From positions 1-64,000 of the forward strand of contig JYFJ02001553.1 in NCBI GenBank assembly GCA_000934665.2: a stretch of 64,000 bases of DNA, written 5' to 3'. This document shows positions 2,829 to 44,019 of this stretch, piece after piece (positions within the stretch are counted from its first letter, which is position 1; the number at the start of each line of letters is the position of its first letter). Below the pieces are notes generated by a model. It did no database searches. It was not told where the DNA came from and saw nothing but the letters and a program-made list of their open reading frames with translations. Position numbers and translations under genes: made by a program. This stretch comes from Catajapyx aquilonaris. Lineage: Eukaryota.

Positions 2829-4698
2829 CTGTTGCACCGCCTGATTCATATTCCACCAGCCTGGAACATAATCACCGTGAAATGGTTCACAATCATTCTT
2901 AATCATCACATTCTAATGAATTATTATAATCATCTAGTACCAAAATCAAGGTTGCTTGTACCCAATGGTAGTTTAATGACACTGCAATCAAGTCCATTAG
3001 ATTAATAACATACGGATCTGGTGTCGACGACCAAACCGATTACTGTTAAATACTATATATTGTTTATGTCGAGACCCAACATCGCTCACACGTTGCCAAG
3101 ACATTGGCACATGTTGTGCACTTTTACTCACTCTCGGGATTGTTTTGGGGAAGATGATGTAGAAGTGTAGCCATTCATGAGAACATTACCAAGAGGCAAG
3201 TCCGCCTTCATTCGGATGAATGTTGAGCTACTTCCCACCATTTGGTACAATGTACGCACCATCATTGCGGGGACAAAATATCTGCTGTGGTTCCTTCTCC
3301 CTGCGGAAGACGAATATTTTGCTTCTTTTGCTTCAATCAATGTATCAAAAATAGACCCAATAAATGATATCAAACGGGTGAGTCATACTTTTGAGGCATT
3401 TTAATACATTGGCTTCTTACAATATTCAAGGACAATGACGACATATTTGATGTGCTAGTCTTAACCAACAGTGGGCATGTACAAGATGGGTCATGGAGTC
3501 GTATTCGACCTTCTCTGCACAGAAGATATTTTTTTTAATTTAATTTAATTGTTACCCCGTGCTCGAGCCATTGCGTGGGATTTTTTCAAGGGGTCATTCG
3601 GGACTCCCATTTGTCCAGGATTCGGGCAAACTGTCACGGTTAGGACTAGTGTTGTAAAGGCCAGGGAATAACCGATTTGGGGGGGGGGGGGGGGGGGNGG
3701 GGGGGGGGGTTCCCGTTTTTTACAAAGACCCGAATTATTGTTACCATAATTATAATCAGCGTAGATGATTTCTCAAATATTTAACATATTATAAAATAAT
3801 GAGATCAAAATTCTCACAAACATAAAATATTTCATTTTTTATGTAGGCTATGCCAACTTGTACAAAAATGGAAAAACTAATCTTCAGTTCTGGACATCAG
3901 TAGGCCTATCACTAGGCCTACATTTTTCTGGTATTTATACCTTGAATATATTACGCTCTTTGTGTATATTTCAGCCAATCCCCAAAGCGTCTGTTGGGTC
4001 CTTTGCCAGTTGTAATTATTATCTTGCATTTTGCTGACCTTTTCAGCATTTTCATTTAAAGAAAATTACTGGCAGATGTCAATAAACTGGATGGATATAA
4101 TGTTTTGGGTCATTTTGGACGTCTAAATTTCGAGCATGATGTTGATGAAAGGAACCAAGCAGCATGCAAACCAGTTAAAAATAAATAACTAACTGGTCAG
4201 TTACATTCACCTAAGCTTGTGTGAGCCTGAACACTCCACTGCAATGGTGAAATTGCCACGTAACACTGTCTGTGACGAGTGTTTTTCTCCGCAGATTTAT
4301 AACCACCATTATCCACAATAATGAATTAGGTTTGGATGTACCCTAGACCGAGAGCCACAGGAAATTGACAGATTATAGCCTGGGTGTGGATTTATTGGTG
4401 GGGAGGCCGCTCCCTGACCTTGACCTGACCTGTCTCCACCTTAGCGAAACATTCCCTTCTGGACACAATGGCATTGATCACCGTCATCGACTATCCTTTT
4501 CAGTGTCACCCTTTGGCTTCTCGGATGTTATATTGATGGGCTCTCAAGGGCACAATTTCTAAGACAGTTTGGACACGTTCAGACGAGTCGCCAGCAAAGG
4601 AGAAGACTGTTTAGGTCGTGGTCGGGGGTGATGATACAATTGGCTGCCCTGGTGGAGGTTCAGCGTGGTTCAGAGTCTTTTCCACTTGTTGCATAAAA

Positions 4699-6120
4699 AT
4701 GAACAGATCAAATCGCGACTTCCTCACATTACGTCGAACATCACCAGTGATTCAAGTGAGCGTGACAATAAAGCAACCAGAAGGAAGTGATGAGCAGAGA
4801 GACGCGTTTTGGACCTCGTGCAGACCACTGTCCATCTTGGCCACCTTTGGAGGAATCGCTCCTTGTCCTTGGCCCAGGAAAGGGCAGAGTTGGAAGTGGT
4901 ACCAAAGGTGGCCTGCAATGGTGCACTTCATTCTGCTGGCTGCATATTCTGCGAAGTTGACTTGGATGCCATTCTCGTATTGGTACAGAAGCTTTCACAC
5001 GAGCACAACAGGTTGGATCACAACATTAACTCTTGATGGAGTAACACTTGGTAGTCCATGGCTTCACTTCATGTTCTGCCAAACAGGAGTCACTCAGATT
5101 TCGAAACTAATGCAACTTGTTTCTGCACTGAACATGCGTCTCCACGAGAGGAAACTGCGAAAATATTCCGCACTTCTAGTGTCTGCTTGCTTCTTGTTGC
5201 CATCAGCTGAAGTCTCATGCATGATTTTTGTCTATCTTCAAGGTGGACAACTGTTTCAGTCTTACTTCATTTTTGACATAATCATTGCGTGGCACTCTCT
5301 CTTTCTGCTTCACTTGATCCCCGTCCAAGTGACTTTTTTGGCTACAATCATCCGATTGAAGCTAGATGATTTCAATGAGGAAGTAATACATGTCTGCACT
5401 GCTGGGCATAGTAACGGCCCCTGTGATGACGAATTGATTAAGAAATTGAAGTCCGCCAGCGACCTGTTGTACGACCTTTGCCTGATTGTGGATGACATGG
5501 GTAGCACTTACGGAGCATCCATCATGGCCACCTATCTCATATCTGTCATATGGATCACAGGATATTTGTTTTACTTGTTTCTTATTAGTGTTACCTACCG
5601 AAGTATAGTTGACACAATAATATTAATAGTGATTCTTGGGATAATCGTTTCATCAGTCGTTACCTTCACCATCATCATGGGACGAATACCTCAGCAGGTA
5701 ATTAGTACCGGTACATCTTTCTTCCCTGGGGTGTCCATCGACTGCGATAATAATGAATCTTTATACGTTTCCAGAGCACAAGGGCATTGCCTCACCTCAT
5801 CCACTCTTGTCCTCTGGCCACCAATCCAAGGATCAAGGCACATGTGAGTGATGCACCTACACATTTATAATCCCTCATTTCCTGAATTGTACAACTGTAT
5901 GTTTCAGATGGAAGTATTCATACAAAAGCTGACCGGTCCTCCCATCGAGATATCCGCAGCAAATTACTTTGCAGTCAACCGGGGCTTATTGACAGCCGTA
6001 AGTCTACAGAGGACATTAAGATGGAAGTGTAGCTAATCACTCTTCACGTCTCCTTCACAGTTGGCTGCAGCAGTGACCACATACATCATAGTCCTGGCGC
6101 AGTTCATGGGAGCAGAATGA
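4699..6120 (+). CDS. Gustatory receptor 'GR2' (7tm_7), intact tandem duplicate of GR1
   Basis: Exons 4699-5697, 5775-5843, 5908-5997, 6061-6120, all GT-AG and phase 0. Ends ...ISAANYFAVNRGLLTA/LAAAVTTYIIVLAQFMGAE*. Confidence 0.93.
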
Positions 6121-8326: not shown

Positions 8327-9640
8327 CTATACGCCTTCAGCAGATTTGAACTGCGCCAGAACTATGATGTACGTAGTTATAGTTGCAGCCACCTGTTAAA
8401 CAAATTATGCAGTAATAATGGGAGGTTACAAGATTAGTAAAATGCATACCGAAATGAGCAGCCCTCGATTGATCGTGAAGTAACTGGCAGCAGTCACTTC
8501 GATCGGAGGTCCAGACATTTTCTGGATCAAAGCTTCAATCTGAAAGATAATTAGATGTTAATTAAAATATTTATTGATGGCAATGCTTACTTACATCGGC
8601 CTTAGTTCTTGGGTTGGTAACTAGACGATTCGCATAGATCAGCTGCATAAATGCTCTTGTGCTCTGAAAGTACATGGTGCATAATTTAACGCAATTTTCA
8701 AACATTTCGGTTCGCTTACATGTCGTGGGATGCATCCAACAATTGTGGTGAAAACGGCAACTGACGCAACAATAGCCAAGATAGCAAACACTACGGAAAC
8801 AATAGAAACAACTCCAGCAGGCGACGAAATGATTAGATAAAACAACCAAGATGTGATCCACAACACAAATATGAAGTATGTGCTCATTAACACTGGGCCG
8901 TAAGTGCTGTCCAATTTGTCCACCAAGAGACACAGCTCGTAGAACAGGTCAACAGATCGGGTCATGTCAACCTGTCGCTTTTCGCACAAAATGTTACAGG
9001 ATTTCAACACGTCCGAGTTAAAATCTTGCAACAAACAACGAAGCACGACGGATAAGAAAATGATCTGGACAGGTACGAGATGCAGCAGAAAAATGCACAG
9101 CCAGTCCACAAAGTTCCAGAACAAATGGTACGGCTCGAACAACTGACCACTGACCCCCTGTGTGACCATCGCCTGGGATAGTTCACACAGAGGCAGCATG
9201 AAGCAAACAACAGTCAGAAGCGCCGACCATCTCCTCAGCTCCTTCAGGTGACCTCCGACCTCCAAATGGGCAAACCGATGTATGAGCTTCCATATCTTGT
9301 GCACTCTAGTTTGGATCAGAATGTAGTTGAGCCACGGACAGCCTTCGATGACTCCTTGCCACAAGATGTAGGCCACCTTCTCCGTCGGACTCTTGATCGT
9401 GTTGTGCTTCCAGTTCGGAGGAGGGTCGACCGATGTTCTGATTACGACTGTTGCTAGGACTATAAAATGAAGCAGTGTCGGCCATCGTCTGTACAACTTC
9501 CAGTTCAAGTTCGCAGCTGTCTTGGGCCACGGAAAAGGTGCGATTCCTCCGACAGTTGCAAGGATGCCCAGTGGTCTGAACGCGGTCCAAAATGAGTCCT
9601 CTTTCGCAACATCCTCAACCTCTGTGGAAGGTAATATCAT
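8327..9640 (-). CDS. Gustatory receptor 'GR3' (7tm_7), intact
   Basis: Exons 9640-8720, 8663-8595, 8539-8450, 8392-8327. Same internal exon sizes (69 and 90 nt) as GR1/GR2. Ends VAATITTYIIVLAQFKSAEGV*. Confidence 0.93.
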
Positions 9641-9980
9641 TGTTAATATCAGCGAGGCAGTGCGTCTTACACGTTCAACTAATCAAATGAAACGGATCGT
9701 GACACCCGGCCGTGACAAATATGAACACATGTCCAATGTTATGACATGAACTGGTATGACACCTTTTATATTGATCAGGTGTCACAGAAAATATTCATGA
9801 TGGCATGACCTGTCAAGATTGAGTTCAAGGCAACTACGCAGCAAGGTGTTACGTACAAGGTGATTAATAGGGTCCTTCTCTGGAATTTGAAACCATGGCT
9901 AATTTGTAAAAGGTTGTTATTTTTAAATGGGTAACCATCGTTAATTAATGTCAAGAACAGCAACAATGAATACGTTGCAT

Positions 9981-10330: not shown

Positions 10331-10480
10331 CAATCTCTGAAACGCTTGAGAACAGGGGGATCCAGACACTGCAAAATATTCCAGTAGTAAGTTGCAATAA
10401 TGAAAGTCCGATACATTTCCGCATCAAAATATTTGCACAGATATTTCAGATGCCCCTGTTACAAAATCAACTAGTGATCG

Positions 10481-10942
10481 ATGGCCATCCTGTCCAGGCT
10501 GCTCGGATTAGAGAACGAGCCATTCAGAAAAGGACTGAACTACATGATCAAACTAGCCTGGGAGAATCGTTACCGCCTTCCCATGCTGATCATGGTCGGA
10601 TTCATGGTCTTCGACATCCACATGCAGATGGAGATACACGTGGACGTGGAGATGGTCGAATTTGAAGGAGGCAGCGGCAACTCCAACGAAGCTTCAGACG
10701 ACTACGACACGGACAGCAGCGCGTTTGATATGGAAGGAGAAGAAAGCGATTTAGAGGAGAACGCAAGCCTGCAGTACTCTCTGGAATCGGACGACGAACT
10801 CCTCACCATGCCAGCGCTCAGGGAATACCTGGGGTTGGATCCAATGGTAGAGGATTCATCGGACGCTGCACCGGACCAGAATCGAAGGCCATCGGGAGAG
10901 GAAGAGGACGACAGATTCATCGACGTTTTACATGAGGACTAA
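10481..10942 (+). CDS. Uncharacterised 153-aa protein: hydrophobic segment followed by a long acidic region
   Basis: Uninterrupted ORF with coding-like composition; segment LPMLIMVGFMVF; D/E-rich C-terminal half; AATAAA at 11001; convergent with the GTF3C1 3' end. Confidence 0.6.
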   Translation: MAILSRLLGLENEPFRKGLNYMIKLAWENRYRLPMLIMVGFMVFDIHMQMEIHVDVEMVEFEGGSGNSNEASDDYDTDSSAFDMEGEESDLEENASLQYSLESDDELLTMPALREYLGLDPMVEDSSDAAPDQNRRPSGEEEDDRFIDVLHED

Positions 10943-26922: not shown

Positions 26923-28706
26923 ATGGACGCCGAAGAAGGAGAGCTGATGGATTCATCTGCTGAGAAAACAGCGGCTGGCGACTCACCCGAAGAGGTATCA
27001 CCCTTACAATTAGCACCATCGTATTCCTTATTATTAAATCTATAATATGCATAGGCTTTAATGATGATACGTTCTCGACAAATAACAATTAGAACGGATT
27101 AGAACAATGAGAGCATCATTTTGTTGCAATTTAATTTTAATTAATTTCCAGCATGATATGTTTGAGTACAATCCGCAACCACGGCCTGACACTAAGGGAT
27201 TCACCGGACCTTTCCGAGCGGCACCGCAGCCTGTTCACTACAGCGATTCGGATGAGCGTCCGTCTGAATCGGATACGACAGACACGGACTCGGACTCAGG
27301 GATTCCGCGTAAGAACCAGAAGCGGAATCCAAAGCCGCCCGTTGCGACTCCGAACAATGCGGAGTTCAGTACGATGGCGGCAGAGTTCCAGCAGACACGC
27401 AAGAAGAACAACGTCTGGAGCAGCATCATACAGGAGGAGGTGTTGTCGCAGGAGATGATCGGCATCGGCGTTGGGAAGTCGAGGAGGAAGGGCGGACGCG
27501 ATGTGGAGGACTACGATTACATGTTGGCGCACTCACTGGACAACACCGACGATGGTAAGACCTCATGGTAAATTCTGCTGTACAAATATGTGACGAGCAT
27601 GATCCAAACAGATGACGAGGAAGAAATGGCCGATGACGGATCCAGTAAGGACGATAAGATGGAGGATGACGAGAGGCCAACAGGTGCGAAAGGTTTCGGC
27701 CAATTCCGCGGCCGCAAGCGAGCCAACTGGCAGCGAAAGGCTATCAAACGCAGACCACAAAAGGCGGACGTCCCGTTGACTCTTCAGGACCTGAAGGTGA
27801 CAGCGGACGACACTCCTGACGACATCGCGATGGACATTGCCAACAAACTGTTCGAACCGAAATCCGATCTAATCAGTAAGTTACATATTGATAGTATGAA
27901 ACAGGATTACTAATTACATAACAATTTCTGTACAGAACGAGTGGTCGACATTCTTGGGAAGCAAACAGCAATGAAATTGTACAAGGACACGAAAGATATC
28001 GAAGACGCCGGCGGAATTATGGTTGTGGTAAGTACTGCGTTCGTTTTGACGGAATTATGGTTGTGGTAAGTACTGCGTTCGTTTTGACGGAATTATGGTT
28101 GTGGTAAGTACTGCGTTCGTTTTGACGATAATGCGATTAACTTTTGCATCCAATAGAACGGATCACGGCGACGGACACCGGGTGGCACATATCTTCATCT
28201 GGTTAAGACGAATCCGGATCTGTGCATGGATTCGGTTCGGAAAGTGTTCGCGGATGAGGTGAGGGAAAAAGAAGCGTTTAGAAGGAAGAATCAAGCTTAC
28301 AGGAGGCGGCAGAAGGCAATAGAGAGGGTGCGGCATCTTCCCAACGATGATCCGCAGAATTTACCAGCGCCAGAGGACACACGTTAGTAATTACGTCACA
28401 GTACGTCGGGTCTCACGTAATTAATGGCAATGTTTTAAATCTGCAGTTCCTCATCTGCCGACTAGAGAGGAGCTGTTCCTGAGTGATGTGCTGGAAACAC
28501 GGAAGTTCGTAGTGCCCGACAGTGACGGAGAAATCCAGTCGGATGAGGATAACATTGTGAACAAGTGCGAAGAAGCTGCAGTTCCAAGCGTAGAAACCAA
28601 GAGACTGAACAACACGCCCGAGAACTCTCAAGACGGGTTTTCAAATGAAAAGAAGAGTCAAGATGAGGACTTTCTTGAAATCACTTTTAAAGACGACCTC
28701 TTCTAA
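26923..28706 (+). CDS. PHAX: Phosphorylated adapter RNA export protein
   Basis: Exons 26923-26994, 27152-27554, 27612-27875, 27936-28027, 28157-28382, 28447-28706. Motifs EEGEL, KKNNVWSSIIQEE, RDVEDYDY and the RNA-binding domain IEDAGGIMVV/NGSRRRTPGGTYLHLVK. Confidence 0.93.
28012..28125 (+). repeat. Perfect 3 x 38-bp tandem repeat spanning the PHAX exon 4 donor
   Basis: CGGAATTATGGTTGTGGTAAGTACTGCGTTCGTTTTGA at 28012, 28050 and 28088. Confidence 0.95.
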
Positions 28707-32379: not shown

Positions 32380-33270
32380 TATCTACTTATTTTAATCAGC
32401 TAATAGTTTTGCTAATTATTACTTGTTAATTGATTTTAATGGATACTATTTGTTGTTCATATTTATTAATGGATGCCATTTGTTGATTAATACCATTTCT
32501 AATAGTTATTTACTTTATTAATAATATTTCATTTTTTCTTTCATTCGTGACGATTATTTTATTTATTAATAATTTAGTTATTTCTTTAAAATTTAATTCA
32601 AGTAGCCTATGATTCAATCATTAATTATTTTAATACTTTAATAAATTATTGTAATTGTTTGATAATTTTAATAATTTAATTTTAATACTTTAATTATTTT
32701 AATGGTTTGATAATTTTAATTTTTTAATTATTTTAATGGTTTGATAATTTTAATCCTTTAATTATTTTAATGGTTTGATAATTTTAATAATTTAATTTTA
32801 ATAATTACATTAATTATTATAATTAAATTATGAATAAACAAATAAATTATTAAAAATAATTTATCAATAAACAAATAAACCATTTATTTGCTTATTAGTA
32901 ATTTATTTGTTTATTAATAATTTAATAATTTTAGTAATTTGATTTTAATAACGTCATTTTTGCTAATTAATTAGGTTACCGTAATCTAATTATTTTAATA
33001 ATTTGATTTTTAGTAATTTCATTTGACATTGAATAATTTGATTTTAGTAATTTCATTTGTACTAATTTACATTGAATAATTTAATTTTTAATAATTCGAT
33101 TTCTGTTTATCCATTTAATTGTTTTAATCATCAATTTTATTTAATGATCTAATTATTTGTGTAACAATTTACTTATGTAATAATACGTACTTATTTATTT
33201 AATTATTAAATTTGAAAATTAATTAATATGCATATCGTATTGATGGTTTATTGATTAATATATTTTTATT
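32380..33270. repeat. Extremely AT-rich low-complexity tract
   Basis: TTTTAATAATTT-type repeats with almost no G/C. Similar tracts at ~40100-40900, 42240-42900, 52440-52810 and 53720-54420. Confidence 0.85.
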
Positions 33271-34380
33271 GCGTCTCTCTGAGCATAGACACTGATTAAT
33301 GACCTTATTGGCCCGCTTTTTTTCTCTCTCTCTATAATATGTTTGTATTCGATGCAAGGTTTATATGATGAATGGGAGTTTATTAGTACGTGTGCTCATA
33401 CAAATATATGAACCCAATACGTACGGTTCGGAGTATTAATAAGCACGGTTCGGAATGAATGGACATGTGCGACACGTCGTTGCCCTGTTATGACGGTGTG
33501 ACCTATTTAGGACCGTGGGAAAATAACTATTTTGTGTACAGTACACGTACCACAAAAAAGTGCGTAGTAAACACGAACATGACCCCCCGTCCAGCTGTGC
33601 CCCAATGTGGCTCCACCCTATTGGACAGAAAAAATTTGGGTGCGTACCTTTTCCACAAAATATTCTTAAAGGAAAAAAAAACATGCAATTTTCTCATCCT
33701 ATGGGTGCGTCCAACACTTATGTAAAAAAATTTCGGTAATTAGAATGTTTAAAAGAAGAAATTGTAGTGTTGCGCAAGTACAAGCAGATGGGAAGTTTCC
33801 GGTTGTATTTATTGCCCCCCCCCCCCCATCCCCCAAAAAAACCAAATTTGGGGACATTTTTATGAACATCCGGATGCAATTTTTAGCTTTAAAAAATCTG
33901 GGTTTTGGAAGACATTTTGGCCTATTTTGGGTGGTGGGGGGGGGGGGATTCCAAAAGTGTTAAGACACAGTGGGGGTATGGGCTTTAATCAATGGACCTG
34001 CATTGTCCTCAAAAATTAATTAATCACCCGCATCGTAAGTACAGTACTTGCAATGTCTGCAGCTGAAGCAACATCCAGCTGAGGTCGTATATGAAGAAGA
34101 AGAAGAAAAAAAAGGACCCCCCATAGACCAGCCCCTTTTGACCTCGAATTTTCCGCAGTCCAGTCCGAGGCATCCGATAACCATACATAGGTTGTTTTTC
34201 CCTTCCATGTTTATTTTCGGTTGGCCCCCGTGCCCAAAACCACACACTATAGAAACTCAACATGACACTCATTAGAAATTTATTTACTCAGACCTTTCTG
34301 GGGGGGGGGGGGGGNGGGTGGGGGGGGGGGGGGGGGAATAGGCTCAAATTGCTCAAATTTACGTCGGTGGAGGCTTTGCT

Positions 34381-34990
34381 GGATTCAAAATGGCGTCGAT
34401 TAAATATGGCCGCCGTAATGTGGACTCAAGATGGACGCCATAGTGAGTGGATTCAATATGGCGTCGATTGAAGATGGACGCCACCGTAATGTGTGGACTC
34501 AAGATGGACGCCATAGTGAGTGGATTCAATATGGCGTCGATTGAAGATGGACGCCGTAATGTGTGGACTCAAGATGGCCGCATAACGGGTGGATTCAGTA
34601 TGGCGTCGATTCGATGTGGACGCCGTAATGTGTGGATTCAAGATGGACGCCACAATGGGTGGATTCAACATGGCCCTCGTAATATGTCGATGTGGATTCA
34701 ATATGGCGTCAGAATGATTTCCGTCCTCGACGTGATGTACTCATTCGTTGTCGTCGATCGTCGTCGGTGGCCCCTGCCAACCGCACTAAAACTACACATA
34801 CTGTACGACACTCTTAGAAATTTATTTTGTCTAATTAGCCCTTTTTAGAAAAGAAAAGAAAAGTGGCCCGCCATGGGTTCAGATTGCGCTAATTTCGATG
34901 CATATCTTTGCTGGATTCAAAATGGCGTCAATTCAATATGGCCGCCGTAATGGAGTGGATTCAAGATGTTGTTGGATTCAAAATGGCTTC
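34381..34990. repeat. Array of YY1/Pho-like motifs in two duplicated blocks downstream of the acidic gene
   Basis: About 20 copies of (GGATT)CAA[AGT]ATGG[CA]CG at ~20-bp spacing in 34381-34712 and 34912-34990. Confidence 0.8.
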
Positions 34991-34997
34991 CGGAATT

Positions 34998-36614
34998 TTA
35001 TTTCCGTCCGCGACGGGCCCTCTTCGGCGACGGAGTGTAGTACTCATCCTCTTCCTCCTCCTCCTCGTCAACGTCGGTGTCGTCGTCGTCGTCGGAGGTG
35101 TCGTCAGACGACAACTCGTCGTCGCCGCTCCAGCCTGACAGGGTGCTTGGTGAGGGCTCTTCCTCGTCGTCTTCGGATTCCTCTGAATCGTCGGAGTCCT
35201 CGTGGTTCTCGTCCTCGGACTCATTGTCGGACTCGTCGCTTTCCAACGACGCTGCTGATGAGTTGGCAGAATTATCATGTTCCTCGTCGTCCTCCTCTTC
35301 TTCATGTTCGTCGTTTTGATGCTCTTCCTCGTCGGACTCACTGCCATGGTAGCCTTCGTCAGCAGCATATTCGTCGTCTTCGTCATTGGCATCCTCATCA
35401 CCGTCGTCGTTGTCCTCACTGTCATCGCCACTTCCCTGGTGATCATTGTCGTCGTCGCCTGCTTCGTCGCCGTCACCGTTGTTCCCGTCGTTCCCGTCGT
35501 CTTGTCCCGTATTACCCGCTTCGTCCGATTCACCGTGATCGTCGCCGGCGTCGCCGTCGCCATCCCCGTCGCCTTGATCCCCACCGTCCTGCGCATTGTC
35601 CTCATCGTCGTTGTCCGACTCATCGCTGTCAGTCCCATCTCCCTCGCCGTCTTGTTCCGGCTGCAGCGCCAACGTCGGTCCCCTCTGATGGGTCAGGGAG
35701 GAGTGACGTCGTTTGACCCCTGTTTGACCCGCGCCACTGTCGCTTTCGGACTGTCGCTCGTCCAGGCATGTGTACACGAGCTCTTTGATCTGATCGACGC
35801 TCAAGTGTGACCTACCCTCGACTTCTGACACCCTGATGCTCTTGCCACTTACCGTCACCTGCAAACCATAATTAACAAAATAATGTTGTTATAGGACAGT
35901 CCATCATTCGATACGTCTAACTTGTAAGTAGACTTCGGTACGTATGTCGTTACGTGTATAAAGCAGACACCGATTATGTCGTTACCGGTACGTGTAAGTA
36001 GACGTTGATGACGTCATTACACGTCTAAGTAGCTGTAAACTGCAATTACTTCGTTACAAGTAGACGCCGATTATGTCGTTACGTGTAACCTAGCGTGTAA
36101 CTCACTAACTGGTGTACGTATACGTAACGTAGATGTAAAAAGTTCTAGGCAGAAGTATCAGCCGTAACGTAGACGTACGGTAATTAAGTAGGCGTAACGT
36201 AGGCGTAACATATTTGTTCGGACAAATGTCAGCTGAGTTATTTTATACGCAGTCCTAAGTCGTTAGACTGTAACGTCTACGTAGCGTCTAAAATGTATAA
36301 CTGTATAAGTATACGTACATGTACATATATTATCTCGAGTTCTGGTGTGGATTCCAGAAGGTTTGCTATCCGATCCTTCCATTTCTCGGTGACCTTTACC
36401 TCCCTGAGGTTGATGTCTACTGGGGTCAGGTCGTCCCCATCTTTCCTGGACATCATCTGGCTTTTGATCCGACGTGTGTACGTCACTTCGTAGGCGTCTA
36501 TCAGTCGCCACTCAGACTGATCCATGATCGTCTCTGTCGGATTTTCTGAAGCTGAAAAAAGATGGTACAGAGTAACACCGGTACACCCAAAACCGAAGAC
36601 GTCAACTCACCCAT
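34998..36614 (-). CDS. Uncharacterised ~364-aa protein: ~110-aa N-terminal domain, very long D/E tract, C-terminal TPSPKRARRGRK (NLS-like)
   Basis: Exons 36614-36611 (ATG G|GTGAGT), 36551-36319, 35858-34998 join in frame: MASENPTETIMDQSEWRLIDAYEV...LEIIYVH/VTVSGKSIRV... Intron 1 is 59 nt, a typical size here. AATAAA on the minus strand at ~34820. Confidence 0.75.
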
Positions 36615-36727
36615 CGTGATGGCCCTGGAACAACTTGTTGACTAATTCGCTGCGACCATGGTAACACGACTGCTCCATTGTTGTCCTTTTTGCTCGAATT
36701 ATTCATCGGGTTTTTCTCGACGTGAAT

Positions 36728-39288
36728 ATGTTGCTGGACGAGAGGGACGTGGAAGATGTGGGGCTCTTTTTGTATGTGGAACAGTGCAAGCAGTACCTGC
36801 GGGACGGGCTCATAGGCGAAGATGTGAGGGAAGTGACGGAGGATGTCCTCCATAGAAAGGCTGTGGAGGCGTGGCAAGAGATGACCACGCAAGAGGAGCA
36901 GCAGTGGCACGCTAAGTCTTTGGAGACCATCAATCGGATCAGAGAAACGGCCAATAAAGGCCTGAAGAGAGAGTTCAGACTCTACTATGTCTTGAAGAGA
37001 TACGACGTGAGTTTTGATTGTCACAAGTTTGCATCTTCATAATATTATTCTAACTTCGTCTAGGTACTTTACGTCTATGTTACGTAGACATAATTACATT
37101 CACGAAGACGTAACAACGTAATTGACGTCTACTACGACGTAACGACGTACAATTGACGTATACTTATACGTAACAACGTAATTGACGTCTACTACGACGT
37201 AACGACGTACAATTGACGTATACTTATACGTAAGGTCCTTACGTCTACTTCTACGTCAATTATGCGTAATTGTACGTAAGGACGTATAATTGACGTATAC
37301 TTATAAGGACGTATAATTGACGTATACTTATACGTAATGACGTATAATTGACGTATACTTATACGTAATGACGTATAATTGACGTATACTTATACGTAAT
37401 GACGTATAATTGACGTATACTTATACGTAATGACGTAACGTAGACGTAGACGTAGGAAGTACAATTGACGTATACTTATACGTAATGACGTAACGTAGAC
37501 GTAGACGTAAGGAAGTACAATTATTGACGTATACTTATACGTAATGACGTAACGTAGACGTAGACGTAAGGAAGTACAATTATTGACGTATACTTATACG
37601 TAATGACGTAACGTAGACGTAGACGTAAGGAAGTACAATTGACGTATACTTATACATAAGGTCCTTACGTCTACTTCTACGTCAATTATGCGTCCTTACG
37701 TCTACGTTACATCCTTATATGGTACGGATGTAACGTAGAAGTAGACGTAAGGACGCATAATTGACGTATACTTGTATGTAATGAACGTAGACGTAAGGAC
37801 GTACAATTGGCGTATACTTATACGTAAGGTCCTTACGTCTACTTCTACGTCAATTGTCCATCATTACGTCTACGTTACGTCATTACATACAAGTATACGT
37901 GGGGAGGCGAAGTGGCGCAACGGTAACGTTCGCGCCCACGGATGTTAAGGTCCCGGGTTCGATCCCGGCCCGGGGACACCCCCTTCATCTCGTGCAGAGT
38001 AAAGTGTCGTCTCTGACTTCGTCTCGGGTGGAATATCCACAGACTAATCCACCCGGGGGAGCTCACAAAACGACCACATGCGGACAAGGCACTGCACTTG
38101 CACATCCCCTCCTGTCATCCCTTCCTGCCCGTGGGCCCGGGCGCTGTATAAATAGGATCCAATTGTATTTGACGAGTAATAAAGGTCCGGCAAGACCCCA
38201 ATAGGGGTACGCCTATACCCAATTATTAATTATTATTATTATTATTACAAGTATACGTCAATTTTACGTCCTTACGTCTATGTTACATCCTTACGGTAAG
38301 GATGTAACGTAGAAGTAGACGTAAGGACTTAATTGAAGTCTACAATCGGTGTTTATCGGTGTTTTTGTTGTTTTGTGTCTCTTAACGACACCTCAGGAGG
38401 TCCGGAATGATCATCCGGAGTTAGACAACAACACGTGGATCGAGGTTGCGTTGCCTGGATGGCTCGATTTAACCAACAGTCAAAGACGAGAGTATAAGAA
38501 GCAAGCTTTACAAATATCGAGCCATGTTTGGATTTGGGCTGCGTCTGACGTAAGTTTGGGGGTTCACACGAGAGTCTTTTGGTCGTTGAACCTAATCGGA
38601 ATGATGTGAATGTGTGCAGGGTATCGATGGGTGCGAAACCGAGACGGGGACGTTGTCATCTTCAGAGTCGGACGACGACGAACCGAAGTGTAAGAGACAA
38701 GCGACCAACGACAGTTGGCAGAGTTCAAGCGAAGTGAGCAACGACAGCGACAAAGCCAACGACGATGTGTTGTACGACTCACCAGGTTCCGACGTGGACG
38801 GGATCGACAGCGACGGTGAATCAGGCGACACCAGGAACACCGACGACAGTAGTTCATGTGACGACAGCGACGATCGAAGCACCCATGACAGCGACACCTC
38901 CAGCGACAACAGCGACAACAGTAACTGTTGCTCCAGTAGCAGTGACACCATGGTCAACGACATCGACACTGCCATCGACGATCTCTATTCGCCTGACGGG
39001 CAGGGATCTGAGGATACACTCAGTGACGTAGGCAGTCCCTGTGATGACGTGGGCTGTCCCTGTGGTGACGTAGGCTGTCCCTGTGATGACGTCGGCTCTC
39101 CCCTTGATGACGTGACCTGTCCCCATTATGACGTAGGCTCTCCCCATGATGACGTCGCTTCTCCCTGTGATGACGTAGTGCAACTTCGTGACGAATTCGA
39201 TCCTGGTGAAGGTACTAGCAGTGGTATCAGAGCTAGTCACGACTTGCTTAATTTGGACAGCTTCCTAAGGCAAATTAAACGGAAGTGA
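36728..39288 (+). CDS. Divergent tandem HMG-box protein with a long acidic tail, ~366 aa
   Basis: Exons 36728-37006, 38397-38549, 38620-39288 (phase 0, donors GTGAGT and GTAAGT). Box 1: LFLYVEQCKQYL...KAVEAWQEMTTQEEQQWHAKS. Box 2 spans intron 1: FRLYYVLKRYD/EVRNDHPELDNNTWIEVALPGWLDLTNSQRREYKKQA, matching the HMG pattern F..F....R..v...hP.......lg..W..ls.eek..Y...A. AATAAA at 39395. Confidence 0.75.
37060..38340. repeat. ACGT-rich tandem/inverted array in intron 1 of the HMG gene (related sequence at 35910-36300)
   Basis: 29-bp unit ATGACGTATAATTGACGTATACTTATACGTA and longer ~55-bp units; blocks GTCCTTACGTCTACTTCTACG occur in both orientations. Confidence 0.9.
37901..38245 (+). mobile_element. 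tRNA-derived SINE (same family as 6475-6838)
   Basis: A box TGGCGCAACGG (37913), B box GGTTCGATCCC (37956), (ATT)n tail, 13-bp target site duplication TACAAGTATACGT (37888-37900, 38246-38258). Confidence 0.92.
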
Positions 39289-42200
39289 TGGACACATCAA
39301 CAATGTCCACAAACTATCCTGCATCCTCCACAGTGCGAGAAATGATGCCAGCACACCTAGCGGATGGTCAAAAAAAACAATACTTTTCACTGGAAATAAA
39401 ACAAGTTTTTATCTAAAACACAATCTGAACATGACGCTTTTACTGATATTAATTTGCATTTTTCTAAACACCTTTTTTTGGATTTTTTTCCCACCTAATG
39501 ATTTATGTGACCACTAATTATTTTCATTAAGCTAATCGGTTGGACCACACGCATCGATTTATCTCCGTAAAATTTTAATTGCTTTAAGAAAAAAATTGTT
39601 ATGGCCGCCCTATAGTCATAAATCGCCTCCTTTTATGAATATTTTTTTATATCTTGTTTTACGAACCGATATGCGATCCGGATCGACAAATAAACGATAA
39701 CCAAATATGGCATATCTCCACCCATACTCTACACAAAAAAAAAAACATTGATGTTTTGCGCAGGTAAATTACACCTGTTCCCATATATTATTTTGGGTCT
39801 TCCTTGATGATCGTGTCCCACCTGCAGGGGGGGAATTTGAGCTGTTTGAATCACTATATTTTTTTTTGTAGTATATGTACATGTGTGTTGTAGCCAGGTT
39901 TTTTGGGCGTCGACAACCAGGTGGGACACACTCACGTTCTTTTTCACGCCTTTAAGTCACGCTTCCCACACGACATGGGGCGTTTAACATTTTTCGAACT
40001 TCATTGTGTCTGATCACATCGAGCAAGAAATTATTGTACCGTCTGCAAGGTGTTTCTAAAAGATAAACCGACAAACAAGCCATCCATATGAATATTTTAC
40101 CAACTGAATTATTACATTATAATTTTTTATTTTATTTCGTTCAAATAGGTATAGTTTTAATTTTTATTTGAAATTTTAATTATTTTATTCATTTTATTTT
40201 ATTTGAAAAGTTTTATTTAATTTATTTTAAATATATGAATCTGTTAAAATTGTTTTATTTTGTGAGAAATTATTTATTTTTGATATAAATTATTTTATTT
40301 TACATTAGAATTTATTAGTTTACATTATATTATTGCCTTTTTGGAAATGATTTATTTTATTTTGTGTTTATTAAAATTAATTTATATATAAATTATATTT
40401 ATGAAATTATTTTGTATATTTATAAAAATTATTTCTTTATTTTATTAAAAATACTTATTAAATTATTTTATCAATGTATTATTTAACAAATGTATTAATT
40501 ATTTAACAAATGTATTAAATTACGGTATTTATTAAATGTATTATAGAAATTATTTTAATTTGTAACTTTATTTTAGAAATTATTTTATTTTAGCAGAATT
40601 TATTTTTAAATGACATTATCAGTTTATTTCGTTTTATTTAAAATGCTTTATTTTTATTAAAATATTTTATTTTATTTGTATTAAAATATTTTATTTTATT
40701 TGTATTAAAATATTTTATTTTATTTTTATTAAAATATTTTATTTTATTTGTATTAAAATATTTTATTTTATTTGTATTAAAATATTTTATTTTATTTGTA
40801 TTAAAATCATTTATTTCATTTTTACTAGCATGATTTTATTTTAATTGACAATATATTCGCCTTAATTTCAATATACTGTTTTTTTATTTTGAGTATTAAT
40901 TGCGATCACGTGATAGTCCAATGTACTTTTTATATTAGTTTCGGTACACCTTGTACACATTTATAATATATATTTTTTTGCACGTAAATTGATTTGGGTC
41001 TAAACTGGACCCTCGGATTGGTCACGCGAAACGCCCTCATTAATCAACACGTTTAAAAGGGTGAGTTCGCGTGCACCATTTCGGGGCAACACATTTCGAG
41101 GAACCCACCCTGTCTAAGCCCCTTTTAGGATTACATAGGCACACACACACACACACACACACAAAAAAAAAATATATTAGTGGCGTACCGTGTTCTTTTC
41201 AAAAAAAGAGTTTTTTATGGTCACCTTCGAACGAATATGGAGGGTTCTTTATGAGGTCACTAACTCTTGCAATGTTCCTTGTTTCAAAAAAAAAAAAATG
41301 GTTGGTTTAGCACTATATTTTGGAAAGCTGGGTAATTATTATGCAAAAAAATTTGCGTTTTTTATCTTTTTTGGTGTTTTTTCATATTTTTTTGTTCGGG
41401 ACCTAAATGTAGAGAAAAAATCTTTCCAAGTCCTATGCTGGTCCTTCCACAACTGTAATCAGCACCAGACATCGAACCCATTTTGACCCATGTTGGGAGA
41501 CAACCCACCCTAACTTTGACTGGTTTTATCTTGGTGTATGGGTCCCAAGGCGGCCACTTTGAAGATTTTGAGGAGTGGTTCCTTATTTCCGTTCCACCCC
41601 CCCCCCCCCCCCAAAAAGCTACTTCTGCACTCCCTCCACATTTCTGTAATAATAGGCTGCTTTATCTAGAACTAGAAAAGCAGACTTCATATATATATGG
41701 TATTCGCCACTGGTAAAAATAACATTATTTTTTAACAATGCAATTGGGAGGTAATGACTGAATTAATTGGAGGCAAGATTAATGATGAGCCATTCAGATA
41801 CACTCCGGATATTTTTGCATATTATCGTAGCCATCGATGTTTTTTTTCTTCGTNCCCACAAAAAAAAAGGTTGTAAAAGATGAAGCTCCAGGCCACCCCC
41901 TAACCCTCAGTGATTTATTAGAACGCCATGAGGTCTGTATCAAGGGCCCCAGAGTTCCTTCTTCCCCCCCTTTCTTTGGGTTTCTTTCCACAGAAAAGAT
42001 GTCCAGCTGATGGGACCAAAAAGGCCATCAAGAGCAACTGTTATGACCGCCGAAAATTGGTTGAGTGACCGTATATCCACGCAGGCTTCGGGGAAAACTT
42101 CAGGGCCGGGTGATAAATGAAGTTTATTTAGCAGTAATAAAGCTATTTATTTCTGGGAAAGGAAAAGATCGAGTTGGAAATAATGGTGACGGTTCTAAGG

Positions 42201-44019
42201 TAGTTCCAACCCTCAAATGACATGGGATAGTCCCCTTTATATCTTTTATCTCTATTATTTTGTTTGCTGTATTTATTTATATTTTTATTATGTATTGTGA
42301 CTCTGTATAACTTATATTTAATACTGTGATTTTATTTCATTGTTATTAGTTTTATTAATTTAATTGTTCGTTTGATTCATTTTATTCTAGTCATTTTATT
42401 AGTTCGATTATTTTTAAGTTTCATGATGTTATTTTAAATTTAATTCTGATATTTTATTTATAAATTCTGTTAATTTCAATTGACTTAGTTAAAACATATT
42501 TTGAGCATAAGTGAAAAATGACATTTCAACAAAAATTTAATACATATTTTAAATATAGGCCTAAATGAGCAAGATTTAAACAGATTTTAAAATCTGATTG
42601 TAGAAACTACAATTTTTAAATTTAATTATGTTATTTAAAATTTAGTTGTTATCTAAAATTTAGTTGTTATCTAAAATTTATTGTTATGTTAATTCAGCTA
42701 TGATATTATTAATTTATTATTATTTAATTCATTTCTGTTTAATTATGTGTCATTATTGATTTAATTTTGTGGTTTTTATGATTGCTGTTGTCTTTCAATT
42801 TATTTTTGTTATTTTGAAACTTATAATCCTGATATTTTTATTAATTTAATTCTCCTACTTTTTTACCATGTTCTGTTGTTTGAATTTTAATGTTTGTGTT
42901 TCTCATTGCAATTTTTGCACTTTTGTGTCATTAAGTCTTCCATATTTATTTACAGTACCGTATGTGGTTTGATTTTCATTTCATTACTTGTATTACATTA
43001 GGTTAGCGTCTCCTTTCCTACGCAACCCCCCCCCCCNGGATTAGCTGCTGATATTTTTCATCCCCCCCCCCCCCAAATCATGAGTTATGGACCACCCCCC
43101 CGGATTATCCGCCAAAAAATAACAAAAAAATTTAGCAGCCAAATTTATGGCCCCTTTTTGCATATTTCCGGTTCAATGATCAAACCCACTTTAGTCGCTT
43201 CTTGTTTTCAAACTTTAAAAATAGGGGGGTGGCTCGATTTTAGGTATATGTGATTTAATAGCTACGGTTTTTTTTTGAGAGGGGGGGGGGGATCTAAAAC
43301 GTTACAAAGAAACAGTAGGAGGGCAAATGTTAAGACCCAGATGCGGGTCACTATTTTTTTTTCTCTCTCTCCTTCAGATAACGGTGGTGTTTGAAATGCA
43401 TAAATTTTTCAAGACCAGACGTTTTAAAAGTTCTCATTTTACGATCTTTCCAGCATCTTCCAGAAACCAAACCGAAAAGATTGCATGTCGGTGTCAAAGG
43501 TCAATTACAAAAATGTCTTAAAAGCCAGCATGAAATTTCACCAAAGGAGAGAACGAACTGGCTTGTTCTTGGCATTTTTATGGCCTTAGTTTCCTACTCA
43601 TCCAATCACAGATCCTGTGTCCATTGAGGATCCTCTGTGGTAGGTGGACCACTTTTAGAAGCATCTAGTTTACCAGGTGAATAGAAGCAGCTGTGCTTAG
43701 AGGGTCTTTATTATTATTAAAATGATAAAAAGAGCCCCTTCAGAGTTTGTCCACCTTATCGCTGACCACTGAAGAGGCGATCTCGAGTCTCCTTTCATGA
43801 CCTTCCTAAATGGAGAGAGAGAGACCCACGTGTGTCCCACTACTGGAACAACCGGTTATGTAAACTGACACTGGTAGTACTGTCCTGAAATATCTCAATA
43901 TATAAAACGGAAAATTCCGTCCGGATGTTTGTTTGGAAAAGTGGGAGGAGCTTAAGAGGAGTCATGGCCAATCACGGCCATTGATGTCACATTTGACCAA
44001 TCACAGCGTTTGACGTCAC

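Follow-up and report, generated by a model that had tools for sequence, protein, structure and literature searches.

The closest described counterparts of the genes considered here are chromatin proteins that carry acidic tails or HMG boxes. ANP32 and nucleoplasmin/Nlp consist of a folded N-terminal domain, an acidic tail and a C-terminal nuclear localization signal (NLS), the tail of HMGB1 is a short and pure run of aspartate and glutamate residues, and the MST-HMG-box proteins evolve rapidly. Two articles (PMC10520872, PMC10120018) present the latter, which are sperm nuclear basic proteins of Drosophila, as HMG-derived chromatin proteins; PMC4207994 describes the damping of DNA binding by acidic tails that fold back on the HMG boxes; and PMC10987829 portrays histone chaperones as rich in acidic disordered regions. 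Here we describe two adjacent gene models, A and B, which occupy positions 34998–39288 of a 64,000-nt stretch of the genome of Catajapyx aquilonaris (contig JYFJ02001553.1 of assembly GCA_000934665.2, positions 1–64,000; hereafter, the window). On balance, we regard A and B as two real, lineage-specific host genes that diverge from one short promoter region and encode strongly acidic nuclear proteins, that of gene B with HMG-like boxes. Gene B would probably specify a very divergent protein composed of HMG boxes and an acidic tail, located beside an orphan gene, A, for another acidic nuclear protein.

Head-to-head gene models and their coding potential

It had been proposed in the original prediction that five open reading frame (ORF) fragments are spliced at consensus sites into two genes for proteins of approximately 365 aa. 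This was reproduced when the exon coordinates of that prediction were joined by a script: gene A, on the minus strand, comprises exons 36614–36611, 36551–36319 and 35858–34998, with a coding sequence (CDS) of 1098 nt specifying 365 aa, and gene B, on the plus strand, comprises exons 36728–37006, 38397–38549 and 38620–39288, with a CDS of 1101 nt specifying 366 aa. Both CDSs are multiples of three and each contains one stop codon, which is terminal. GT..AG borders are found in all four introns. Those of gene A extend from GTGAGT to TTTTTTCAG (intron 1, 36552–36610, 59 nt) and from GTACGT to GGTTTGCAG (intron 2, 35859–36318, 460 nt), and those of gene B from GTGAGT to CACCTCAG (intron 1, 37007–38396, 1390 nt) and from GTAAGT to GTGTGCAG (intron 2, 38550–38619, 70 nt). 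The acceptors all read C/TAG, a clear pyrimidine tract being present upstream of only the acceptor of gene A intron 1. We infer that the four introns are removed by splicing and that both genes are expressed.

The two start codons, at 36614 on the minus strand and at 36728 on the plus strand, are separated by exactly 113 bases (36615–36727), precisely as predicted, and are therefore well inside the distance of 1 kb below which divergent starts are counted as a bidirectional pair. The 113-bp spacer presumably contains a shared bidirectional promoter along with the 5′ untranslated regions (UTRs) of both genes and may direct transcription to either side, and a pair of lineage-specific acidic nuclear proteins sharing such a promoter is a plausible reading of the locus. 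Close divergent gene pairs are common in animal genomes, so that the layout alone shows no functional A–B module of the co-regulated, two-component chromatin type suggested in the original prediction. An adenine occupies position −3 in both ATG contexts, of which that of gene A is Kozak-like (ATCACGATGG). AATAAA is found 107 nt past the stop codon of gene B (39395–39400, plus strand) and 172 nt past that of gene A (34821–34826, minus strand). The spacer also includes a palindrome, CCATGG, at 36656–36661. On the plus strand this palindrome supplies an upstream ATG in a strong context. The ORF that it opens, ∼65 codons long, overlaps B exon 1 in a different frame, which has a non-coding score.

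The region 34998–35888 is open in several frames on both strands (293, 243, 296 and 182 aa). ORF length therefore says little about coding in the acidic tails, and a codon log-odds test was used instead. The underlying table was derived from 3,414 codons in nine other ORFs of the window. Five of these ORFs are supported by Pfam (GTF3C1 winged helix, 7tm_7, ankyrin, C2H2 and NTR), and the remaining four were taken by length and likeness only. In each of the four exon pieces free of repeats, the proposed frame scores above zero and higher than the other five (A exon 2, +0.231; N-terminal part of A exon 3, +0.119; B exon 1, +0.335; B exon 2, +0.150), and the acidic tail of gene A scores +0.324. 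The intron pieces (three of three) are negative in all six frames. Codon usage of A and B is thus coding-like, which favours the view that they are more than chance ORFs.

It is decidedly unlikely that one or both models are non-functional, whether as decaying pseudogenes, as untranslated transcripts or as chance ORFs in low-complexity DNA of the GAC/GAA type. For the non-repetitive pieces, coding-like scores are confined to the proposed frame, all eight splice signals are positioned exactly where the frames must be joined, and the junction of exons 1 and 2 of gene B restores one continuous HMG-like box; polyadenylation signals and Kozak contexts are likewise in place. Several observations nevertheless favour non-functional models and detract from the case for two genes. 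Apart from the multiple open frames in 34998–35888, these are the score of B exon 3, which ranks first of six frames yet is close to zero (−0.001), and the coding part of gene A exon 1 (36611–36614, minus strand), which amounts to four nucleotides, ATGG, directly followed by the donor GTGAGT. The choice of this exon in the model is a guess. An alternative start is offered by the next in-frame ATG (MDQSEW, in exon 2), which would place the ATGs ∼200 bases apart and would leave the two genes head-to-head. Finally, relatives of A and B were absent from every collection searched, and, as neither an orthologue nor a paralogue was found in these searches, conservation cannot vouch for either gene.

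The predicted proteins

Exon 1 of gene B encodes HMG-like box 1 (approximately residues 10–75) and the first helix of box 2 (KGLKREFRLYYVLKRYD), whereas the remainder of box 2 (EVRNDHPEL...WLDLTNSQRREYKKQALQ) is encoded by exon 2. A phmmer-type HMMER search seeded with B exon 1 against 1.84 billion library proteins resulted in two matches, denoted P0001 and P0002. The better of the two, P0001 (E = 2e-5), bears six HMG boxes recognised by Pfam (PF00505, E = 2.6e-72), and residues 3–73 of B exon 1 were aligned by BLASTP with one whole HMG box of this protein. Box 1 obtained 17.4 bits with a hidden Markov model (HMM) built from five P0001 boxes, the highest score among 1000 shuffles being 8.6 bits. 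B exon 2 alone matched the HMG box of BBX in register (rank 2 of 3, E = 0.91), and when a profile consisting of only the window's box 1 and box 2 was used as the query against the PDB, the HMG box of SSRP1 took ranks 1–4 of 91 matches (E = 0.2–0.3), with positions 3–38 of the profile corresponding to positions 18–53 of the SSRP1 box (an isolated 68-residue construct). An HMG cluster was also listed at rank 3 for gene B in the Atlas, with a score of 0.85.

A core signature, W..[LM][ST]......[FYW], was defined by a tryptophan in helix 2, [LM][ST] at +3/+4 and an aromatic residue at +11 in helix 3. It matches four places in the six-frame translation of the window (127,996 residues), and two of these are box 1 and box 2, where the conserved HMG core positions are occupied as expected (box 1, WQEMTTQEEQQW; box 2, WLDLTNSQRREY). 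All five P0001 boxes that were examined conform to the signature, except that one of them has A in place of S/T at +4. The two boxes of gene B can be aligned with each other without gaps and in the same register, and the score of this alignment was reached by 49 of 2000 shuffles. A model of B exon 1 computed from the single sequence displays three helices (18–25, 38–52 and 55–76).

It is unlikely, though to be taken seriously, that both genes are real and that the N-terminus of B is an unrelated small helical domain, in which case the pointers to HMG boxes would be coincidences produced by the short W..LT....aromatic motif together with a helical, charged composition. Four different searches with two parts of the protein (P0001, BBX, SSRP1 and the Atlas cluster) all converged on HMG boxes, and did so in one register, and HMG boxes constitute, by our estimate, a very small share of the libraries searched; the presence at this locus of two of the window's four signature matches also speaks against coincidence. 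On the other side stands a series of results that fit an unrelated domain and count against HMG-box identity, to begin with the fact that no HMG test is significant alone. No HMG family was reported by Pfam (E ≤ 10) for any of the five exon pieces, although box 1 is contained wholly in exon 1; box 2 is split by intron 1, and for it the Pfam test covered just the 51 residues encoded by exon 2. The score cut-offs of PF00505 and PF09011 were not reached by the gene B exon pieces, and the only Pfam row among the five pieces was PHY (E = 0.013), which is under its own cut-off. B exon 1 had no sequence match in the PDB at E ≤ 10, and comparison of the two-box profile with P0001 by hhalign yielded a probability of 11%.

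The match to P0001 is itself open to several objections of the same kind. The shuffle test carries no correction for P0001 being the best pick of the library, and box 2 obtained only 0.3–1.3 bits on the P0001-box HMM, which is inside the shuffle range. Upon re-running phmmer, the best single stretch of B exon 1 reached only 14.3 bits on P0001; the library E-values are inflated, because the scores of P0001 and P0002 are sums over repeats. P0002, with E = 4.9e-4 and 10.7 bits for its best stretch, is clearly a spurious match, to a bacterial protein of the GBS Bsp-like repeat/amidase type, and since it scored close to P0001, chance matches reach nearly the level of the latter. The core signature, for its part, was written after inspection of both boxes. 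The structural model of B exon 1 is poor, with a predicted local distance difference test (pLDDT) value of 52.6. Foldseek, a check that the original prediction had suggested, retrieved with this model a single match from the PDB, to a HOPS subunit (E = 9.3), and no HMG fold, and in the wide VIA-align comparison the highest Z, 4.2, belonged to helical hairpins and none of the matches listed was an HMG chain; so poor a model carries little weight for or against an L-shaped three-helix fold. Box 1 is moreover acidic: it has a net charge of −9 and an acidic N-terminal arm (DERDVEDV), the basic arm being absent.

An HMG-derived origin of the gene B N-terminus is nevertheless likely, because the weak pointers, obtained in different libraries and with each half of the domain pair, agree on family as well as register; on these sequence comparisons, we would hold such an origin to be quite probable. 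The N-terminus of gene B probably comprises two very divergent HMG-box-like domains, which would adopt an HMG-type fold. The two HMG boxes claimed in the original prediction therefore stand as the best reading available, on which weak pointers agree, albeit all of them are sub-significant and Pfam is silent.

Of the two properties that accompany minor-groove binding, a basic arm and a net positive charge, box 1 displays neither, and only box 2 displays them in part. The boxes of P0001, whose net charges range from +1 to +4, possess basic arms of the PKKPKTGY type. Box 2 has a basic N-terminal arm (KGLKRE) and a net charge of +1, and has kept the core W / L-T / Y pattern. Exon 3 of gene B (38620–39288) encodes the Ser/Asp-rich acidic tail, which ends with LRQIKRK and the stop codon. 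The tail is 222 residues long, contains 26.1% D/E and 23.4% S/T and has a net charge of −46, that of the entire protein being −54. An in-frame repeat of 21 nt, present in 7.4 copies at 39024–39178 (80% match), encodes D-D-V-G-C/S-P-C heptads (last residue C/H/L) within the tail. The unit of this repeat begins with TGACGTA, a word that also fills the intronic satellite described below.

The gene A protein has a net charge of −103. Its residues 1–120 form a non-repetitive N-terminal domain that is split by intron 2: most of it (residues 2–80) is encoded by exon 2 (36319–36551, minus strand), and its end by exon 3 (34998–35858, minus strand), which continues with a short basic, Gly-rich linker (residues 121–145, including KRRHSS), an acidic tract, a basic terminus and the stop codon. 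The acidic tract (residues 146–350) comprises 205 residues, of which 50.7% are D/E and none K/R. K/R make up 40% of the final 15 residues, and PKRARRGRK, within the C-terminal SPKRARRGRK, constitutes a classical-type basic signal. The acidic tails and basic C-termini (SPKRARRGRK and QIKRK) ascribed to the two proteins in the original prediction are indeed present in both.

No Pfam family was detected in the two exon pieces of gene A that were tested, which represent the halves of the N-terminal domain separately. Sequence searches of the PDB retrieved only designed repeat proteins, nanobodies and one surface protein, with no meaningful match, and there was no nucleoplasmin chain among the six PDB matches at E ≤ 10 when the halves of the domain were used singly. 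In the Atlas, LRR_6 clusters scored 0.92–0.93, with a recognition value of 2239, below the Atlas's own threshold of 2300, and low counts of shared features (127–145 of 256). The model of exon 2 displays a beta-beta-beta-alpha-beta pattern; its pLDDT of 49.2 was too low for a fold search. The N-terminal domain of gene A appears to be an orphan alpha/beta domain, unrelated to that of gene B. The N-terminal domains of A and B share no similarity (the score was reached by 223 of 2000 shuffles), so that the pair is not an inverted duplication.

Both proteins look nuclear, because their C-termini are basic, with the classical-type PKRARRGRK in that of gene A, and they would be imported into the nucleus. 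There, the acidic tracts of A and B may act like the acidic tails of histone chaperones, binding and shielding basic chromatin proteins such as histones or further basic proteins that package DNA. Such an activity would be the most likely one, to judge from acidic tracts as a hallmark of chaperones and from the damping of HMG boxes by their tails. In gene B, at most box 2 would touch DNA, and only weakly, with the tail damping this contact as in HMGB and HMG-D.

Intronic repeats and genomic surroundings

Intron 2 of gene A and intron 1 of gene B hold an ACGTA-rich satellite made up of 31/59-nt units such as ...GACGTAACGTAGACGTAGACGTAAGG..., which in the latter intron occupies 37107–37890 and 38231–38396. 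As many as 95 of the 306 ACGT cores of the window fall within the 1,850 bases of these two introns (17 of them, or 37 per kb, in intron 2 of gene A), and every 500-base bin outside the A/B locus contains fewer than eight. The repeat could be a locus-specific satellite, a family of miniature inverted-repeat transposable elements (MITEs) or an array of bZIP-type sites. In intron 1 of gene B, the satellite is interrupted at ∼37895–38230 by a tRNA-like insert of the short interspersed nuclear element (SINE) type (GGGGAGGCGAAGTGGCGCAACGG...GGTTCGATCCCGG...); ARAGORN called no tRNA at this insert, and a search of Rfam over 30–45 kb was empty at the gathering score. The same intron contains an inverted repeat with arms of 92 nt (37617–37708 and 37784–37875), 83% complementary and 75 nt apart, which could fold into a hairpin in the pre-mRNA.

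The neighbours of A and B, as identified with Pfam, belong to ordinary genes of the host and are GTF3C1-like, 7tm_7 chemoreceptor, ankyrin, C2H2 and NTR-module ORFs, and between ∼29 and 51 kb the two genes are the sole recognisable coding unit. Their flanks are AT-rich and contain tandem repeats. AT-rich low-complexity blocks with a G+C fraction of 0.28–0.29 are found on either side (32380–33160 and 40170–42700), their mutual similarity being of the low-complexity kind only. A 73-nt tandem repeat, with 4.2 copies at 34380–34674 and further copies up to 34946 (block 34351–34946), is situated directly downstream of the gene A stop codon, in the presumed 3′ UTR.

The original prediction had considered that a large mobile or viral element might carry the pair as cargo. 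The isolation of A and B in AT-rich, repeat-rich DNA and the failure to detect orthologues would suit a KDZ/Zisupton-like or Maverick-like element or an integrated virus; even so, we judge this origin highly improbable. Of the 42 other ORFs of at least 70 aa at 29.3–49.8 kb, none could be assigned to a Pfam family at E ≤ 0.01, and in particular no transposase, integrase, polymerase or capsid family was detected among them, in agreement with the earlier remark that no transposase or capsid gene could be recognised near the pair. No inverted or direct repeat brackets 34998–39288 (28–48 kb searched with a seed of 14 and a minimum of 40 nt); inverted pairs at long range occur in this interval only at 42.5/47.7 kb. 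Neither B exon 1 nor A exon 2 has relatives among 2.9 million viral contigs, where P0001 has none either, or among metagenome contigs, and no further copies of the pair were found in a sequence index that covers part of the genome. Spliceosomal introns with host-type repeats and a codon usage like that of the neighbouring genes fit an origin in the host. As for the notion that KDZ/Zisupton elements carry HMG genes, a literature search gave it no backing: in the portions of the literature covered, Kyakuja and HMG never occurred together, and the eight texts that mention both Zisupton and HMG have neither term in title or abstract, the two standing in unrelated references in one of these texts.

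Word-indexed protein searches retrieved no relatives of B exon 1 or of A exon 2, both compared with longer proteins, or of residues 1–70 of A exon 3. An exact look-up found none of eight ORF-derived proteins in the protein collection; four ORFs of the neighbourhood were included among the eight, and the result is uninformative on annotation there. Further away in the window, related chemoreceptor-like ORFs are clustered at 2–529, 1339–2559, 4615–5847 and 8639–9682. Only the last of these is confirmed as a chemoreceptor (Pfam 7tm_7, E = 1.1e-9), and 1339–2559 has no family. An acidic ORF at 10478–10942 (…SDDYDTDSSAFDMEGEESDLEE…) adjoins the GTF3C1-like gene, its sole Pfam row being a sub-threshold DUF4560. 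The label PHAX, which had been attached to the ORFs at 27086–28706, was left unconfirmed, as no Pfam family was found in the three ORFs tried.

Comparison with known chromatin proteins

As it stands, A and B are a plausible orphan gene pair in an ordinary bidirectional arrangement, which opens no long-standing question and for which no link to a mobile element emerged. Should the genes be real and expressed, they would add two unannotated, fast-evolving acidic nuclear proteins; and should the proposed origin of gene B be true, it would be a derivative of an HMG-box protein that has turned acidic, a case that bears on the repurposing of chromatin domains in arthropod lineages. A more elaborate view, which we consider improbable, is that A and B are co-expressed and act together, in this lineage only, as a chaperone module whose clients are basic chromatin proteins, for instance histones or the basic nuclear proteins of sperm. 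Box 1 of gene B would then have been turned from DNA binding to protein binding, A would serve as an acidic, NLS-bearing partner, and the promoter would be flanked to the left and right by intronic arrays of ACGT-core (bZIP-type) sites that have no counterpart in the rest of the window.

Among the known systems, gene B is closest in layout to the HMGB-type proteins (HMGB1/2, insect DSP1 and HMG-D), which likewise have one or more N-terminal HMG boxes followed by an acidic tail. The HMGB arrangement of two tandem boxes and then an acidic tail fits gene B, whose two boxes are HMG-like by sub-significant matches. In contrast to the HMGB-type proteins, however, the boxes of gene B are below Pfam detection, box 1 is strongly negative and devoid of the basic arm, and no orthologues were found; the tail, at 222 residues, is far longer and Ser-, Asp- and Cys-Pro-rich, with a heptad repeat. 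SSRP1, a subunit of FACT and thus part of a histone chaperone, provided the best PDB match of the two-box profile, although not a significant one. It resembles gene B in combining an HMG box with acidic disordered regions, which in SSRP1 are also Ser-rich, but has large N-terminal PH-like domains that are missing from gene B.

The MST-HMG-box proteins would have in common with gene B HMG-derived domains that are short, fast-evolving, confined to a lineage and difficult to recognise from sequence; they are strongly basic, whereas the A and B proteins are strongly acidic (net charges of −103 and −54, respectively). Gene A, on the other hand, follows the ANP32/nucleoplasmin layout, in which an N-terminal domain, here of ∼115 residues, precedes a long, disordered polyacidic stretch and a basic signal at the C-terminus, and departs from these proteins in that its exon pieces lack an LRR or nucleoplasmin family in Pfam.

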